Below, piece after piece: positions 54,095-63,727 of a stretch of 64,000 bases of DNA. Position 1 is the stretch's first letter. Every line of letters begins with the position of its first letter. Source of the stretch: a virus (taxonomy: Duplodnaviria; Caudoviricetes); the IMG/VR virus record IMGVR_UViG_3300005805_009498, positions 1 to 64,000 of that record; one strand, given 5' to 3'. The position numbers and the translations under genes are program-made. A model generated the notes under the pieces. That model was not told the origin of the DNA. It saw only the letters and a list, made by a program, of their open reading frames with translations, and searched no databases.

Positions 54095-54398
54095 CGAAGA
54101 GCGTTATTATATTTTCTTGATAAAACTTTTTTCTATCTTCCTGCATTGTATCTATGGTGTTGGTTATCATTTCCTTAAGAAATTCTAGATTTTCTTTAAA
54201 GAATATGTTTACCCCTCTTTTAGAGACATCGTCGGAATTTGATGTGAAGTTTTTTGGAATCTCGTTTATTCTCCAAAACAATAGTGGACGACAATCCACA
54301 AATTTTATGTTTACCTCTTTCCATCCGTTTGGCTTTACGGTTATCGTTTCACAAAGATCCCATTCTATGTCGTTTTCAATCTTGTAGTCTATCTTCAT
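54087..54398 (-). CDS. Hypothetical protein
   Basis: Overlapping operon member. Confidence 0.65.
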   Translation of the reverse strand: MKIDYKIENDIEWDLCETITVKPNGWKEVNIKFVDCRPLLFWRINEIPKNFTSNSDDVSKRGVNIFFKENLEFLKEMITNTIDTMQEDRKKFYQENIITLFDE

Positions 54399-55093
54399 GC
54401 GTTAATTCCCCCTATTACCCTTGGCCAATAAACATCTGGGGATATTCCCATCAACTGTATCACCAATTCCAATTCCTTATCGGCGTTAAGACCATTAGGA
54501 AGATTCCAATGATGGCTTTCTACCGGTTTCACGTGAGAGGCTTTAACATCGTCTATTATAGCAAGTCTTTCGTAATTAAGTTCCCTTGCCCATAGATAAT
54601 CTTGCGCCCACCCTGAATATGTTATGGTGAATGTTCCAAGAACACGTCTTAGCGCCGATGTCTTAAACAACGGACACATTATCTCAACATAGTTTGTGTA
54701 TCTAATGAACTTGGTTTGATCGTTCAATACTAATGGAAAACTATAGTAACTGTCATGGGTTAACGATGGCTGACATATATTTAGATTATAATCCTGCGCA
54801 ATCGTAAACAATCTAGCTATCTCGGTTGGATCAAGATGAACATCGTAATCAGGCATCCATATCCAATCATACTGATCGAGTATGTCGTACTTTTCGATGA
54901 ACCTCTTGTATATGTGATGTTTGTACCCTTTGTCTTTCACATAATACTTTGCTGTTCCATACACCTGAGGATCGTCGTTCCATTCGTCAGGGTTGAAATT
55001 TATAAGAGCAAGATCAAATCCGCATAGTTTAAAGTCTTTGTCGTTATAAAATCCCCCCTCGGCGCTTGTAGCTATGACGAGGTTTCTTTTCAT
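54395..55093 (-). CDS. DUF707-family GT-A glycosyltransferase-like protein
   Basis: YDWIWMPDYDV, NICQPSLT, YTNYVEIMCPLF, SGWAQDYLW. Confidence 0.8.
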   Translation of the reverse strand: MKRNLVIATSAEGGFYNDKDFKLCGFDLALINFNPDEWNDDPQVYGTAKYYVKDKGYKHHIYKRFIEKYDILDQYDWIWMPDYDVHLDPTEIARLFTIAQDYNLNICQPSLTHDSYYSFPLVLNDQTKFIRYTNYVEIMCPLFKTSALRRVLGTFTITYSGWAQDYLWARELNYERLAIIDDVKASHVKPVESHHWNLPNGLNADKELELVIQLMGISPDVYWPRVIGGINA

Positions 55094-55329
55094 TGCTGTG
55101 TTTGTTCTTCTTGCTGCTGTGTAGCGTTTACCGATTCTACAGAGCGATCAGGTCTAAAAAACACTATTGCATCATAAATGATCTTGGCTTCTTGAATTGA
55201 ATATGCGCCAAGTCTTGTTGCGTGTTCTGCCGCGTTTACGAGAACGTTTATCGCCTTAGCTGGATCGTCTATCACATACGCAGGTGTTTGTGGACGTTCT
55301 GGTTGCGGTGTTTGTTCGGTTGTTTCCAT
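55090..55329 (-). CDS. Small hypothetical protein
   Basis: GAGG SD; overlaps the gp42 stop and the DUF707 start. Confidence 0.7.
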   Translation of the reverse strand: METTEQTPQPERPQTPAYVIDDPAKAINVLVNAAEHATRLGAYSIQEAKIIYDAIVFFRPDRSVESVNATQQQEEQTQQ

Positions 55330-56177
55330 TATTCCTCTACGAAAAATTTGTTAAATATGTCGATGTAATCTTGTGTTTTAAGAACCGAAAAATCTTCTAT
55401 AGATTCCATGTGTTCGTTAAAACGCTTTGCTTGTATTGATATTCCAGTATTTGGATCAAAGATCGGCTTAGTTATCTTTAGCTCTATATCATTATTTGAA
55501 TTTGGATTTTCCTTTCTCAATTCTTGTACCAGAGAGAAATGTCTCTCGTAATAATGAGTATTATCAGAGCAATGATAGTAGGTTCCAACTTCGAGTTCGT
55601 TGTATTTTTCCTTTAGAAGAAGGTACATCGATTGATAAACAACAGAAAAGAACGGCGCATCGTATTGAAGACCATAGAATATGTCGTTTGATCTCATCTG
55701 TACCTTCATGTTTAGCTTATTATCTCTTATCCAAAAGTTCATATACATTGTACAAACGAAATCCTTAACACCTTGACGTTGATACGCCGGTGTATTAAAA
55801 ACCATTATGGCTTGACGCGTAGATTTGTCGTTAATAAGGGCATCATAGGCCCACTTGAACTGGCTTTTGTTTTGTCTTGAATTTATGATGTATCCGTAAT
55901 TGGAATTAACACGGTTAAACTCATCTACCAGACTTTTCCAAAAGCTAGAAAATTCGTTGATTCTATTTATGTTTGTATCTTCACACAGATACCACCATAA
56001 TTCTCCTATGAAATACTTCCAATTAAAAGCCTTGCTATCGAAGTTCATGAGAGGGTATAACGGATCGAACTCAAGGGTGGTAAGATACTCTTCTACGACC
56101 TTTAATCCTCTTGGTGAATCTTCGGTTTCCATCCTTGAAAGGAGAGACAGAACTTCGCTGTTTAGGGTTTTTTTCAT
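55329..56177 (-). CDS. gp42: dCMP hydroxymethylase-type thymidylate-synthase-family enzyme (T4 gp42-like)
   Basis: GELWWY, VNSNYG, KDFVCT, IRDNK, MRSNDIFYGLQYD (Asp at the dUMP/dCMP specificity site), HYYERHFSLV. Confidence 0.85.
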   Translation of the reverse strand: MKKTLNSEVLSLLSRMETEDSPRGLKVVEEYLTTLEFDPLYPLMNFDSKAFNWKYFIGELWWYLCEDTNINRINEFSSFWKSLVDEFNRVNSNYGYIINSRQNKSQFKWAYDALINDKSTRQAIMVFNTPAYQRQGVKDFVCTMYMNFWIRDNKLNMKVQMRSNDIFYGLQYDAPFFSVVYQSMYLLLKEKYNELEVGTYYHCSDNTHYYERHFSLVQELRKENPNSNNDIELKITKPIFDPNTGISIQAKRFNEHMESIEDFSVLKTQDYIDIFNKFFVEE

Positions 56178-56215: not shown

Positions 56216-57268
56216 CTAAAATAAAGCGATGATTTTTGTTTTTCTCGTTGGTTTTCCTGTTTCAAAATCATACATGTATGAGTGTCTGGATAGATGTACG
56301 GATCCAGGTTTTTCCATACACTGTTCCGCGTATTTTTCAGGGTCCATCACATACCATTCATCTGGCCACCTAATGACCATATAATCATGGTCGTAAGAGA
56401 AATCGCTAATAAGTCTATTGAATTCCTTTACCGCATCTGATCTTTGTTGTCTTGTTCCGAAAAAAGGAGATCCTTTATACCATCCGGTTTTTGGGATCTT
56501 CCTTTCTTCGTGTTCTATGGGAAGAAGAGAAACCAACCAGACATTTTCTATTCCTCTATTGTCTTTAAGATCCTTTGCAAACTCTGCATATCTTTTAGCA
56601 AGATCAAGCAACGACGCCATTGGATCTTCCTGTCTAAAAATATGATGCCTAACGTCTATGTTACCCATGTAAAGGATCACGTTTTTGGTTCCTTCAGGGA
56701 AATTAAATTGATCCTTTTTGTTTAAAAACCCGTGTAAAGTTTGGCCATCGTTCCTGCTAATGTTTGCCCCTGGTTCATAGATAGAGACAGCATGACTGTC
56801 CCCATAGATGAAGGTTTTACTGTTAAGAACAACATCAATTCGAGGAATGGACTCTGATATGGACTTATATCGTGAGGCGTCAAGTTCAACCCACTCTTCG
56901 CATGCGCCCTTTGCTCTTGAATTTATGAATTCACCGATATCAGGCATATCGTGATTCAATATGAATATTTTTCCTTTAAATGATTCTAGCCTTTTTACCC
57001 TGTCTGCTACTTCCTTTGTTGCTCCTCCAAATAAGTTGAAAGTTCCTTGAAACTCCATAGGAAGAAGTATCAACCAAACATCGTAATTATGAATGTTATC
57101 GTCCTTAGTAAGGACATCGCATTCTATTTCAAGGCTGTTTAATTGACAGCGTATTAGATATGGCCAGGAGGATTTGTGGGATTCTTTTTTTCTGCTATAT
57201 GACGTAACAACGTCGTCTATGGCAATCCTTTTTCCCCTTAGATCATCAAGAGCATCATATATGTTCAT
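56216..57268 (-). CDS. Hybrid protein: T4 beta-glucosyltransferase-like N-terminal domain + SGNH hydrolase/acyltransferase domain
   Basis: N-term KRIAI...NYDVWLIL...FNLFGG...FKGKIFILNHD; C-term FIYGDSH, DGQT, YMGNID, GSVHLS. Confidence 0.65.
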   Translation of the reverse strand: MNIYDALDDLRGKRIAIDDVVTSYSRKKESHKSSWPYLIRCQLNSLEIECDVLTKDDNIHNYDVWLILLPMEFQGTFNLFGGATKEVADRVKRLESFKGKIFILNHDMPDIGEFINSRAKGACEEWVELDASRYKSISESIPRIDVVLNSKTFIYGDSHAVSIYEPGANISRNDGQTLHGFLNKKDQFNFPEGTKNVILYMGNIDVRHHIFRQEDPMASLLDLAKRYAEFAKDLKDNRGIENVWLVSLLPIEHEERKIPKTGWYKGSPFFGTRQQRSDAVKEFNRLISDFSYDHDYMVIRWPDEWYVMDPEKYAEQCMEKPGSVHLSRHSYMYDFETGKPTRKTKIIALF

Positions 57269-57270
57269 CT

Positions 57271-57537
57271 TTATTTCTTCTCGTTATGATAGTTCTCTAA
57301 ACCTTGGATGTATGCGACAGCATCTAAAAGATTATCCCTCTTATGCTGATAGCTCTCTCTGGAAAATTTAAGGGCTATGAGGGCCTTAAACATGTGATCC
57401 GCGCTAAGGTTCATCCCTGTCATACCGTTAAATATCATTGCGGCCCTTTCCATACCTTCGCTAAATGGGCCATATTGACGATCGGCTTCTTCCGATCGAT
57501 TGTTAACTATTTCTTCTGCTTGTGTTAATATGCTCAT
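57271..57537 (-). CDS. DUF6378-like all-alpha protein (possible nucleotide pyrophosphohydrolase); start revised to 57537
   Basis: ILTQAEEIVN..R...YGPF...AAMIF...LIALKFSRE...KRDNLLDAVAY. Confidence 0.75.
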   Translation of the reverse strand: MSILTQAEEIVNNRSEEADRQYGPFSEGMERAAMIFNGMTGMNLSADHMFKALIALKFSRESYQHKRDNLLDAVAYIQGLENYHNEKK

Positions 57538-57567
57538 AGATTTATTATACATTGTTAGATAGAATTG

Positions 57568-57999
57568 TTATTTATCATAGCCGTTTTCGTTTATCCATCG
57601 CAAATACTTTTTTAGTTCCTTGTCCTCTACCGTTATGGAATATACGCCCTGTTGAAATATCTTCCATGAATCCGAGGCGTACTTTCCCACTCCAGGAAGG
57701 GATTCAACGGAATTTCCATCCCAATTTAACCATTTTTCAGAGAATTTTTTCCACATCTTTGCCCTTCTATTGTAAAATCCTAGAGGCCTTATTATGGATA
57801 TGATTTCCTCATCCGTTGCAGAACAAAGAGATTTTGCATCAGGAAAACGAGAGAAGAACTGGTTTCTTACCTTATCCACTTGTTTGTACCCGGTCTGATT
57901 AAGCATCATACAAACCAGGAGCATCTTCCATGGGTCGTCTTGATAGATTTCTTGACGATATTTAAAGGGACTGGTAGGGGGCTTTGTCGTTTTTTTCAT
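57568..57999 (-). CDS. Stand-alone MBD4-like HhH-GPD DNA glycosylase (143 aa); start revised to 57999
   Basis: QEIYQDDPWKMLLVCMMLNQT, IIRPLGFYNRRAK, HhH LPGVGKYASDSWKIF, VEDKELKKYLRW. Confidence 0.85.
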   Translation of the reverse strand: MKKTTKPPTSPFKYRQEIYQDDPWKMLLVCMMLNQTGYKQVDKVRNQFFSRFPDAKSLCSATDEEIISIIRPLGFYNRRAKMWKKFSEKWLNWDGNSVESLPGVGKYASDSWKIFQQGVYSITVEDKELKKYLRWINENGYDK

Positions 58000-58358: not shown

Positions 58359-58952
58359 ATGCCAGCAAGATCACAACAACAACAAAAAATAATGGGTTTA
58401 GCCCTTGCGTTCAAAAGAGGAGAAGTTCCATCTTCTGAAGTTAGCGATAAGGTTAAATCATTGGCAAAAACCATGAGCATGAAAGAATTAGAGGCTTATG
58501 CATCTACAAAGCATAAAGGCCTTCCAAAAAAAGTAAAGGAGTCAACAATGAACACACCCGGTTCTAAATTATCAACATTCGTTCAATTTATGCGCGAAAA
58601 AGAAGAAGACGTAGAAGACGTTGAAAAAATGGACAACGATGCAGAGATGGTCGATGATACAGACGTTGATGTGGAAATCGATACGGATGATGAAATGACC
58701 GGCGATGAGAAGATGATAAGTGTAAGATCTAGCTCTCCGATGAAACCGGTAAGAAACAAACATTCTTACGAATGGAGCGAGCCAGAATCAAAGATGATAC
58801 AGTATCAGTTAAAAAACATCATTGAAAATGCAGAGGAACTTATTCAGCTTGTCGAAGGCTGCGATGAAATTGAGGATTGGGTTCAATCAAAGGTTACCCT
58901 CGCAGATGATTACATCTCTACCCTAAGGGATTACATGAAACACAGGGACTAA
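58359..58952 (+). CDS. DUF3008-like N-terminal domain fused to acidic linker and a putative head-protein domain
   Basis: MPARSQQQQK...KRGE...MSMKELEAYASTKHKGLP; C-term EDWVQSKVTLADDYI. Confidence 0.65.
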   Translation: MPARSQQQQKIMGLALAFKRGEVPSSEVSDKVKSLAKTMSMKELEAYASTKHKGLPKKVKESTMNTPGSKLSTFVQFMREKEEDVEDVEKMDNDAEMVDDTDVDVEIDTDDEMTGDEKMISVRSSSPMKPVRNKHSYEWSEPESKMIQYQLKNIIENAEELIQLVEGCDEIEDWVQSKVTLADDYISTLRDYMKHRD

Positions 58953-62872: not shown

Positions 62873-63727
62873 TTAAGTTAAGAACAAATTTCTCTCGGTT
62901 TCTCTTCTTCTTGTCAAGCCCTTTAACACCTTGCCTTTTGATTTATTCCATTTTGAAAAATCTGCAGCCGCCCCCTGATAATCCTTATCGTTAAGTTTTG
63001 TAAGAAGCGAGCTTTTCTTTAGGTTTCCTCCGCCCACGTTATATGTAAATGAAACCAACGCGTCATATTGGTTTTGGCTCAGAGGGACTTTTACGTATTT
63101 CTTTACGTAGTTTTCGTATCCTACAACCTTCTTTCTTAAAAGGGCATCGGCCTGTTGTTCGGTCATGGAGGTATACTCCCCGGGTTTCATCGTGACGCCG
63201 TATCCGATGGTTAATTTTCCGCCCGCACAGATGTATGGAGTGGATCTAAATCCCTCGAATTTTTTTATGAGGTTTATTCCGTTTTCGGATATTGAAATCC
63301 CTAAAACGTTTGACGGTATCGATTTTTTCTGCGTTTCGGCGTTGGATAAATTTTTAGAATCTTTAGGGTTCTCTTCGGATTTGGTTTCTTGCTTTTTACT
63401 TAAGGATATCTGGTTGTTTATTTTAGCAGATAATGAATTAGCAATTTCCTTTGTTATTGGATCCGATTCTATTGTTGTACGTATATCTATAGAATCTATC
63501 GAAGAATTTATACTTTCTCCCGAATTTAAAAGCGATACTAATTTATCCCTGTCAAATGTTATTTCGGTTGCGTACGAATCGGAATTTTTAGGTTCGTTCC
63601 CTGAGACTATTTCCCTTATATTGTTTATATCGTCTTCCGAAAATCCGTTAGAGGCAACAGAAAACGATCGTACGAATGGTACGTAGTATTTTATTTCCGA
63701 TTTGCTTTCTAGTATGAAGGATCTCAT
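62873..63727 (-). CDS. GH24 lysozyme with ~135-aa N-terminal extension
   Basis: ISENGINLIKKFEG, E-x8-C-x5-T catalytic triad, LSQNQYDALVSFTYNVG, GLTRRRETE. Confidence 0.92.
   Translation of the reverse strand: MRSFILESKSEIKYYVPFVRSFSVASNGFSEDDINNIREIVSGNEPKNSDSYATEITFDRDKLVSLLNSGESINSSIDSIDIRTTIESDPITKEIANSLSAKINNQISLSKKQETKSEENPKDSKNLSNAETQKKSIPSNVLGISISENGINLIKKFEGFRSTPYICAGGKLTIGYGVTMKPGEYTSMTEQQADALLRKKVVGYENYVKKYVKVPLSQNQYDALVSFTYNVGGGNLKKSSLLTKLNDKDYQGAAADFSKWNKSKGKVLKGLTRRRETERNLFLT

Follow-up and report, generated by a model that had tools for sequence, protein, structure and literature searches.

A phage protein joining a T4 beta-glucosyltransferase-like acceptor domain to an SGNH domain: a candidate enzyme for the modification of 5-hydroxymethylcytosine in DNA

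Introduction

Which reaction is catalyzed by a phage protein that carries a homologue of the acceptor domain of T4 beta-glucosyltransferase (BGT) in front of an SGNH domain and that is encoded beside a dCMP hydroxymethylase? The question is raised by the protein P0001, encoded in a 64,000-nucleotide (nt) stretch of the IMG/VR virus record IMGVR_UViG_3300005805_009498. This whole stretch is referred to as the window; it is AT-rich, with a GC content of 39.6%. Since the record comprises 72,446 bases and has a CheckV completeness of 24%, it represents a fragment of a phage genome of about 300 kb. The gene in question is the following.

56216 to 57268, minus strand: coding sequence, including the stop codon, of the BGT-N/SGNH protein P0001 (350 amino acids; open reading frame list and translation)

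Hypermodified phage DNA withstands restriction enzymes and CRISPR nucleases, and DNA hypermodification has also been a source of tools such as T4 BGT, which is used for mapping 5-hydroxymethylcytosine (5hmC). To our knowledge, only sugar additions to 5hmC or 5-hydroxycytosine (5hoC) are established for cytosine, and amino-acid and polyamine routes, which require a dedicated DNA kinase, are known for thymine only. We also know of no SGNH enzyme that acts on a DNA base. The family of P0001 suggests another means by which a hydroxymethyl base may be activated, as well as cytosine adducts that have yet to be described.

An initial annotation of the window had predicted that P0001 flips 5hmC and transfers an acyl group to its hydroxyl or removes one. 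The reading preferred here, to which we assign a probability of roughly 0.5, is that the enzyme acts on 5hmC in DNA after replication, acylating its hydroxyl and thereby replacing the activating role that a kinase plays in thymidine hypermodification. P0001 matched PHROG 13881 (E 1.6e-63), a group of unknown function, and its full-length AlphaFold2 model was of high confidence (mean predicted local distance difference test score (pLDDT) of 95.2; predicted template modelling score (pTM) of 0.92).

The N-terminal domain resembles the acceptor domain of T4 BGT

The initial annotation had aligned P0001 with T4 BGT by eye. All strings quoted in it were found in the protein, both those compared with BGT (KRIAI at residues 13-17, SSWPYL at 33-38, NYDVWLIL at 61-68, TFNLFGG at 76-82 and FKGKIFILNHD at 97-107) and those assigned to SGNH blocks (GDSH at 156-159, DGQT at 174-177, GNID at 202-205 and SVH at 323-325). 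A BLASTP comparison of P0001 with T4 BGT was not significant, and sequence searches of the Protein Data Bank (PDB), with the single protein by phmmer and with the family profile by hmmsearch, yielded neither a BGT nor an SGNH match. Profile comparisons were made with an alignment of 84 sequences of the P0001 family (A1), to which the counts of members given below refer, and an alignment of 35 sequences of the BGT family (A3). With hhalign, A1 matched the single T4 BGT sequence with a probability of 73%, and it matched A3 with a probability of 97.0% (E 8.7e-11), residues 12-120 of P0001 being aligned with BGT residues 1-118. Thus, the alignment made by eye was reproduced. Since the profile-profile comparison was positive where BLASTP was not, the resemblance between P0001 and BGT is remote, but beyond chance.

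The fold of the domain gave the same picture. The model of residues 1-147 had a pLDDT of 96.6, and Foldseek placed T4 BGT on top (1qkj, E 4.5e-3, TMq 0.52). VIA-align, which is independent of Foldseek, also ranked BGT first (1c3j, Z 6.4, root-mean-square deviation (rmsd) of 3.5 over 106 residues, with residues 13-147 superposed on BGT 1-138). Residues 148-350 matched SGNH proteins; both outcomes are those that the initial annotation had expected. In Pfam, the BGT family PF09198 matched four of the 84 members (best E 0.0024) and was the second commonest match after Lipase_GDSL. The domain and its motifs are located as follows.

56828 to 57268, minus strand: N-terminal domain, residues 1-147, homologue of the T4 BGT acceptor domain (hhalign, Foldseek, VIA-align)
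57023 to 57037, minus strand: NLFGG motif, N78-G82, aligned by hhalign with BGT N70-F-F-G-G74
57176 to 57181, minus strand: near-invariant dyad S30-H31 (S in 81 and H in 83 of 84 members), which has no BGT counterpart

The NLFGG motif was well conserved in the family (N in 79, L in 52, F in 67 and the two glycines in 76 and 80 of 84 members), and its BGT equivalents N70, G73 and G74 were invariant in the 35 BGT sequences. N78, F80, G81 and G82 aligned with BGT N70, F72, G73 and G74, respectively, and these positions were near-invariant in both families. This is in line with the initial assignment of N78 and F80 as the equivalents of BGT Asn70 and Phe72. The parallel assignment of D107 as the equivalent of Asp100 did not hold, as position 107 is Pro in 30, Glu in 16 and Asp in only 11 of 84 members and as hhalign put the invariant T99-D100 of BGT in a four-residue gap. 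A partly conserved acid, the closest one, is D110 (Asp in 57 of 84 members). W35, together with the S30-H31 pair, is a family-specific feature of the N-terminal domain relative to BGT.

The match to BGT stops at BGT residue 118, and the UDP-glucose domain of BGT, with its invariant G188, R191, R269 and E272, is not present in P0001. P0001 shares with T4 BGT (GT63, PF09198; structures 1qkj, 1c3j and 1j39) the homologous Rossmann-like N-terminal acceptor domain, which in BGT binds the DNA and holds out the flipped 5hmC, with its N-x-F-G-G loop, the approximate size of the protein and the gene position beside a dCMP hydroxymethylase gene, as b-gt adjoins gene 42 in T4. In contrast to T4 BGT, it has an SGNH domain in the place of the UDP-glucose domain, lacks Asp100 and possesses the new Ser30-His31 pair. 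Due to these differences, P0001 cannot be a nucleotide-sugar glycosyltransferase.

The C-terminal domain has an SGNH fold

The C-terminal half had been proposed to carry SGNH blocks instead of the UDP-glucose domain, and both fold searches bore this out. VIA-align gave Z scores of 13.3 to 7e16 (rmsd of 3.2, 174 residues aligned) and to 2hsj and of 12.9 to 3p94, with 50 SGNH entries at Z of at least 9.9. Foldseek retrieved 3p94 (E 1.3e-5, probability of 1.00). PatB, OatA, Ape1 and sialate esterases were among the fold matches, and most characterized SGNH proteins among these matches are esterases. At the sequence level, three GDSL/SGNH Pfam models matched only 6, 3 and 3 of the 84 members (E up to 0.1), and in an hhalign comparison with E. 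coli TesA block I was the sole stretch that aligned (probability of 1%). The domain comprises the following elements.

56219 to 56827, minus strand: SGNH-fold domain, residues 148-350 (VIA-align, Foldseek)
56792 to 56803, minus strand: GDSH, block I, G156-H159, with the putative nucleophile S158, following the first strand of the domain (residues 152-156)
56654 to 56665, minus strand: GNID, a putative variant of block III, G202-D205, following strand 196-200
56294 to 56302, minus strand: SVH, with the putative block V histidine, S323-H325 (H325 in 83 of 84 members)

The residues G156, S158, H159, T177, D205, H209, R256, R276 and E319 were invariant in the 84 members. In block I, D157 was kept in 83 members; in block II (DGQT, residues 174-177), the invariant T177 was accompanied by G175 in 67 members; and in GNID, G was found in 81, N203 in 76, I in 81 and D205 in 84 of 84. 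E319, which is invariant, might be the catalytic acid. In addition, R207, R212, R256 and R276 were invariant or near-invariant, and the conserved arginine-rich insertion at residues 249-276 does not occur in ordinary SGNH enzymes.

Compared with the SGNH/GDSL superfamily (TesA, PAF-AH alpha, sialate O-acetylesterase, PatB/OatA), P0001 shows the same fold (Z 13) and a GDS-type Ser after strand 1. It also has candidate counterparts of the Gly and Thr of block II, of the Asn/Asp in block III and of the C-terminal His, roughly where these would be expected. It differs by a score under the Pfam cut-off, by GNID, by the absence of an Asp at -3 from the block V His, by the arginine-rich insertion and by the fusion to a DNA-acceptor domain.

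A dCMP hydroxymethylase gene links P0001 to 5hmC

According to the initial annotation, P0001 is encoded directly upstream of a dCMP hydroxymethylase, and this gene order was confirmed.

55329 to 56177, minus strand: dCMP hydroxymethylase of the T4 gp42 type, directly downstream of P0001 (phmmer match to 1b49)

The encoded protein matched T4 dCMP hydroxymethylase (1b49) with a phmmer E of 2.6e-20. In its RSND...YD motif, D169 of ThyA is kept and N177 is replaced by D. 5-Hydroxy-dCMP synthases carry D169N (PMC13326640), and since D169 is kept here, the possibility that this thymidylate-synthase homologue is a 5-hydroxy-dCMP synthase was rejected. Homologues of the gp42 type, with RSxD kept and N177 replaced by D, were present in four of the five family-carrying genomes searched, including the complete genome of 44RR2.8t; in the fifth (64% complete), only a canonical thymidylate synthase was found. 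On two more short contigs, a gp42-type gene adjoins the family gene. It is, thus, strongly supported by sequence comparison that the phage makes 5hm-dCMP by the enzyme of the gene next to P0001. The chimeric architecture of P0001 and its link to 5hmC are solid, and transfer of an acyl group to the 5hmC hydroxyl, or its removal, can reasonably be inferred from the SGNH fold and the invariant Ser and His.

Tail or lysis proteins contain many of the SGNH domains of phages, and the OSK domain of Oskar was among the fold matches (Z 11). P0001 could, in principle, be a generic phage esterase acting on envelope or lipid, or a non-catalytic SGNH-like module as in OSK, rather than a DNA enzyme. This is highly improbable in view of the homology to the BGT acceptor domain, the invariant catalytic-type residues and the operons of nucleotide metabolism and replication in which the family is found (dCMP hydroxymethylase, NTP pyrophosphatase, DNA polymerase). 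The fusions to HMUDK_hel-like DNA-modification proteins and the polymerase-like C-terminal tail, both described below, speak against it as well.

Family members are usually paired with helical partner proteins

Clustered at 50% identity, the family comprised 393 representatives (162 with an E of 1e-30 or lower), and it was found at more than 595 IMG/VR loci on viral contigs. It occurred in 43 phage records, mostly of cultured T4-like Aeromonas phages, with a few of Stenotrophomonas and Tenacibaculum phages. All members carry the label "hypothetical", and a literature search on SGNH/GDSL proteins in phage DNA modification, on inositol hypermodification and on DUF6378 returned no description of the family. 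Because it is carried by cultured T4-like Aeromonas phages (44RR2.8t, 31, 25 and Aes508), the family is directly testable.

Neighbouring open reading frames were clustered in the 80 best loci of the family. A DUF6378 gene lay within the fetched flank in 69 of 79 loci, and directly upstream of the family gene in the gene orders that were read. Downstream flank of 5 kb or more was available for 43 loci, and in 41 of them the family gene was accompanied by one of the partners c7 and c0b, either adjacent or fused. The partner c7, an HMUDK_hel protein (PF18723, 47.8 bits), was found in 24 and c0b, a protein of about 405 amino acids, in 17 of these 43 loci; neither had a sequence match in the PDB. 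The nearest language-model clusters of c0b have HMUDK_hel or ADDT on a minority of their members, which is a lead only. A second paralogue of the family, considered for 32 loci, was rejected, as it turned out to be the unrelated c0b protein, clustered in via fusion proteins. The following types of loci were distinguished, one of them named for an enzyme dependent on pyridoxal phosphate (PLP).

Inositol-type locus: DUF6378, family protein, myo-inositol-1-phosphate synthase, 136-amino-acid protein, FkbM methyltransferase, c7, NTP pyrophosphatase, DNA polymerase
PLP-type locus: DUF6378, family protein, c0b, c16, PALP enzyme
Window-type locus: glycosylase, DUF6378, family protein, hydroxymethylase, DUF707

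The key catalytic-type residues were the same across these locus types. The inositol cassette was observed at L010:9404-14876 and in 23 more loci with enough flank (e.g., L016, L024, L027 and L030), and it is a candidate for an inositol-based cytosine hypermodification.

The sole two loci of the 43 that had no partner are of the window type. In the relative G001 (88% complete), a c0b gene was detected (hmmsearch E 3.5e-205) far off from the family gene and with a PALP enzyme gene directly after it. This two-gene unit of c0b and the threonine-dehydratase-like PALP enzyme (L088:4836-6846) lies about 75 kb from the BGT-N/SGNH locus, and it adjoins a weak pyrimidine-dimer glycosylase-like match, which is under the Pfam cut-off, and a NAGPA-like match. 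Given this distant pair in G001, the partner pair of the window's phage probably lies in the unsequenced part of its genome.

Fusions of the family domain to partner domains occurred in both orders. ORF233c of 44RR2.8t (795 amino acids) combines the family domain with a c7-like domain (43% identity, E 2e-108), P0045 combines FkbM, c7-like and family domains, and seven proteins are fusions of the family domain with c0b. ORF233c of the Aeromonas phages 44RR2.8t and 31 and the uncharacterized PHROG 13881/17781 are true family members, with 35% identity to P0001 over residues 13-333 and a BFVD TM-score of 0.85. ORF233c differs from the stand-alone P0001 as a fusion with a C-terminal HMUDK_hel-like domain that is encoded beside a symporter gene. 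In 44RR2.8t (L001:4420-8400), ORF233c directly follows this gene, whose product is a sodium:solute symporter (PF00474, E 6e-53) that might import the substituent.

These neighbourhoods bear on another type of chemistry, in which P0001 would be a direct group-transfer enzyme or kinase analogue. It would use a phosphorylated donor (a sugar or inositol phosphate, a nucleotide or pyrophosphate), bound by arginines, and would place the group or a phosphate on the 5hmC hydroxyl without an acyl-enzyme. The conserved R207, R212, R256 and R276 and the insertion absent from ordinary SGNH enzymes are compatible with such a donor, myo-inositol-1-phosphate synthase is encoded directly beside the family gene in about half of the loci with enough flank, and the symporter gene adjoins the 44RR fusion gene. 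We nevertheless consider this chemistry unlikely. The active-site residues are the same in inositol-, PLP- and window-type loci, which speaks against a locus-specific donor, and the arginines could equally bind the DNA backbone or the phosphates of coenzyme A (CoA). Moreover, no SGNH-fold enzyme is known to us to catalyze phosphoryl or glycosyl transfer.

The family protein occupies the position of a kinase

The thymidine hypermodification pathway of phage M6 has been established experimentally (PMC8989533). Pfam analysis of M6 identified gp51 as the amino acid:DNA transferase ADDT (aGPT-Pplase2, PF18724, 1.4e-46), gp52 as a PALP enzyme, gp54 as a P-loop kinase (PF18748) and the adjoining gp55 as a stand-alone HMUDK_hel protein. 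M6 gp52, the PLP decarboxylase of thymidine hypermodification, is in the same Pfam family as the PALP enzyme of G001. The partner c7 was linked to M6 gp55 at a probability of 40%; for c0b and c16, no likeness to M6 gp51 or gp55 was detectable.

The five family-carrying genomes, one of them 100% complete and one being the complete genome of 44RR2.8t, were searched for the kinase and for ADDT. The 5-hmdU DNA P-loop kinase family PF18748, which was detected in M6 as a positive control (1.1e-19), had no match in the five genomes, the window's own record not being part of that search. ADDT (PF18724) had no match in the five genomes or in the window's record. The idea that the partner itself is a kinase was rejected, as no Walker A motif was present in any partner or fusion protein. 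As judged from gene order and fusions, the BGT-N/SGNH protein holds the kinase's position, i.e., beside or fused to an HMUDK_hel module, in phages without the kinase.

The known thymidine hypermodification systems (M6, ViI, PaMx11, PhiW-14 and SH-Ab 15599) follow a logic that would also apply to the family loci: a 5-hydroxymethyl pyrimidine is provided by a homologue of thymidylate synthase, in those systems a dUMP hydroxymethylase, and its elaboration takes place on DNA. The neighbour of the activating enzyme in those systems is an HMUDK_hel-type protein, as it is for the family protein in relatives with c7, and PALP-type PLP enzymes are found in clusters of both kinds. The systems differ in that cytosine rather than uracil is concerned here, that no P-loop kinase or ADDT was detected in the genomes checked, that the BGT-N/SGNH protein stands in the kinase's place, and that genes for inositol-phosphate synthase and FkbM are present in one locus type.

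This arrangement also bears on the possibility that P0001 is a hydrolase. In this case, the SGNH domain would strip an ester-linked group from modified cytosine, deacylating an intermediate or editing over-modified bases, and the BGT-like domain would supply DNA binding and base flipping only. The intact Ser/His motifs and the predominance of esterases among the characterized fold matches would suit a hydrolase. Still, this role appears distinctly unlikely, since the family protein, DUF6378 and the helical partner, which form the conserved core, include no evident ester-making enzyme, since one would not expect a trimming enzyme to be the component that stays most constant in otherwise variable clusters, and since the HMUDK_hel-like fusion mirrors the position of the kinase in M6.

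Proposed reaction of the BGT-N/SGNH protein

Acylation of 5hmC as an activating step, the preferred reading, is based on the following considerations. The neighbouring genes of the family are variable and encode a PLP enzyme, an inositol-phosphate synthase, a methyltransferase or glycosyltransferase-like proteins. Constant residues in the family protein, variable neighbours, an HMUDK_hel partner and the lack of a P-loop kinase together argue for a constant activating step, as performed by the kinase in thymidine hypermodification. Because the same residues occur beside differing enzymes, such a step with a universal donor fits better than a donor-specific final transfer. The pairing with HMUDK_hel and the clusters with PLP enzymes or inositol-phosphate synthase suggest that the acyl group is an activating intermediate, or one step, rather than the final mark. 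For an intact SGNH centre, acyl transfer would be the most economical chemistry.

The reaction might proceed in several steps. First, the N-terminal domain would dock on DNA and flip 5hmC, with the protein possibly tethered to the sliding clamp via its C-terminal ...ALF tail. Second, Ser158 would be acylated by an ester or thioester that is common in the cytoplasm, acetyl-CoA being the simplest guess for this donor. Third, the acyl group would be passed from Ser158 to the 5-CH2OH of 5hmC. The resulting acyloxymethyl group would then act as the leaving group, and the partner would swap in the final substituent. In the lineage of the window, the partner pair, a c0b-type helical protein and a PLP enzyme, would be encoded elsewhere in the genome.

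Several points weigh against this reading. Regarding the N-terminal domain, its fold match to BGT is barely above generic Rossmann-like matches (Z of 6.4 as compared with 5.8 for the next), and the catalytic Asp of BGT is not kept. Regarding the SGNH domain, the Pfam match to Lipase_GDSL (E 0.0015, 19.1 bits) is under the cut-off of 23.6 bits, block III reads GNID and not GxND, with the register shifted by one residue, and the position at -3 from the block V His, residue 322, is Gly instead of Asp. A phosphorylated donor or leaving group would likewise be compatible with the four to five conserved arginines of this domain. Regarding the partners, the assignment of c0b to the HMUDK_hel family comes solely from a language-model neighbour list and is a lead, hhalign comparisons among c7, c0b and c16 showed no mutual homology, and no partner gene was present in the window's own 72 kb record, which is 24% complete. 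Moreover, the HMUDK_hel protein gp55 of M6 was dispensable in vitro (PMC8989533). Finally, the acyl donor is a guess, and the chemistry is inferred.

A wider proposal is tentative and stands at less than even odds: a kinase-independent cytosine hypermodification, in which a clamp-tethered SGNH enzyme, directed to DNA by its BGT-like base-flipping domain, O-acylates 5hmC and an HMUDK_hel-type partner turns the acyloxymethylcytosine, an electrophilic intermediate, into amino-acid-derived, inositol-derived or other adducts. If true, ester chemistry would be known from a DNA base for the first time, the family would contain the first SGNH enzyme to act on DNA, and a new set of natural cytosine modifications would be present in cultured Aeromonas phages and on more than 595 viral contigs. 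An enzyme that adds an acyl handle to 5hmC in DNA, if P0001 is one, would also be a useful reagent for 5hmC labelling.

The C-terminal tail

56219 to 56233, minus strand: C-terminal IIALF tail, candidate sliding-clamp docking peptide (residues 347-350 with pLDDT below 50)

The last residues of P0001 are ...KIIALF, of which 347-350 are disordered in the model. An ...LF end was found in many family members and in most c7 proteins. At two loci (L058 and L062), both tails are altered jointly, the family protein and its partner ending in ...SFFE and ...SFLE. The tails in G001 (L088-L100) read ...KRLF for the C-terminal piece of the split DNA polymerase and ...VALF for the family protein; only five of the 653 open reading frames of G001 end in LF, two further ones being small open reading frames of 152 and 157 amino acids. 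For comparison, T4 gp43 and gp55 end in clamp peptides of the SLDFLF/Y type. The LF tails provide modest, independent support for an enzyme that works on DNA at the replisome.

Other genes of the operon and its surroundings

P0001 is encoded by the third gene of a tight minus-strand operon, in the order MBD4-like glycosylase, DUF6378 protein, P0001, thymidylate-synthase homologue, 79-amino-acid open reading frame and DUF707 protein. The further annotated genes of this operon are listed below.

57568 to 57999, minus strand: MBD4-like HhH-GPD DNA glycosylase at the head of the operon (PF00730, E 1.3e-10)
57271 to 57552, minus strand: DUF6378 protein of 93 amino acids (PF19905, E 2.6e-9)
54395 to 55093, minus strand: DUF707 protein, same operon (PF05212, E 3.5e-6)

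The glycosylase matched the mammalian MBD4 glycosylase domain 1ngn (phmmer E 1.6e-23, query residues 59-196) and keeps the GKY-x-x-DS motif. Its open reading frame is open to 58170, and the likely start is the ATG at 57999, the listed open reading frame with a TTG start being apparently about 57 codons overlong. In a phage with 5hmC-containing DNA, 5-hydroxymethyluracil or uracil opposite G, derived from deamination, could be its excision targets. The stop codon of the DUF6378 gene lies 2 nt ahead of the P0001 start. DUF6378 has 38 invariant columns, including the paired acidic motifs EE...E and DNLLD, and its conservation is far above that of the neighbouring P0001; no sequence match was found in the PDB. 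It could be a small all-alpha NTP pyrophosphatase, with a dCTPase-like role, or a subunit.

DUF707, which we take to be a glycosyltransferase-like family, is encoded in synteny in relatives of the window-type locus. Past capsid-like genes, a lysozyme-domain protein, a GT2 glycosyltransferase and a guanylate-kinase-family protein are encoded at 62873-63727 (minus strand) of the window and, beyond it, at 63746-64908 of the record (G000; L002:9747-10909). The GT2 and DUF707 proteins may add sugar to the modified base.

If 5hmC already carries a sugar, in this phage provided by the DUF707 or GT2 proteins, P0001 could be a tailoring O-acyltransferase or esterase that acts on this sugar, much as other SGNH enzymes add acetyl groups to polysaccharides or remove them. 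The presence of DUF707 and GT2 genes in or near the operon fits, as do the SGNH carbohydrate esterases and O-acetyltransferases (PatB, OatA, Ape1 and sialate esterases) among the fold matches. Yet, this is quite improbable for the family, as most of its loci have no nearby glycosyltransferase, as its constant partner is HMUDK_hel-like and not a glycosyltransferase, and as the motif by which BGT handles the base itself is retained in the N-terminal domain.

On the opposite strand, a DUF3008 protein (58359-58952, plus strand; PF11450, E 4e-14) is encoded, relatives of which were present in 41 of 80 related loci, so that it is a conserved neighbour. The guanylate-kinase-family protein could be the dNMP kinase for 5hm-dCMP.

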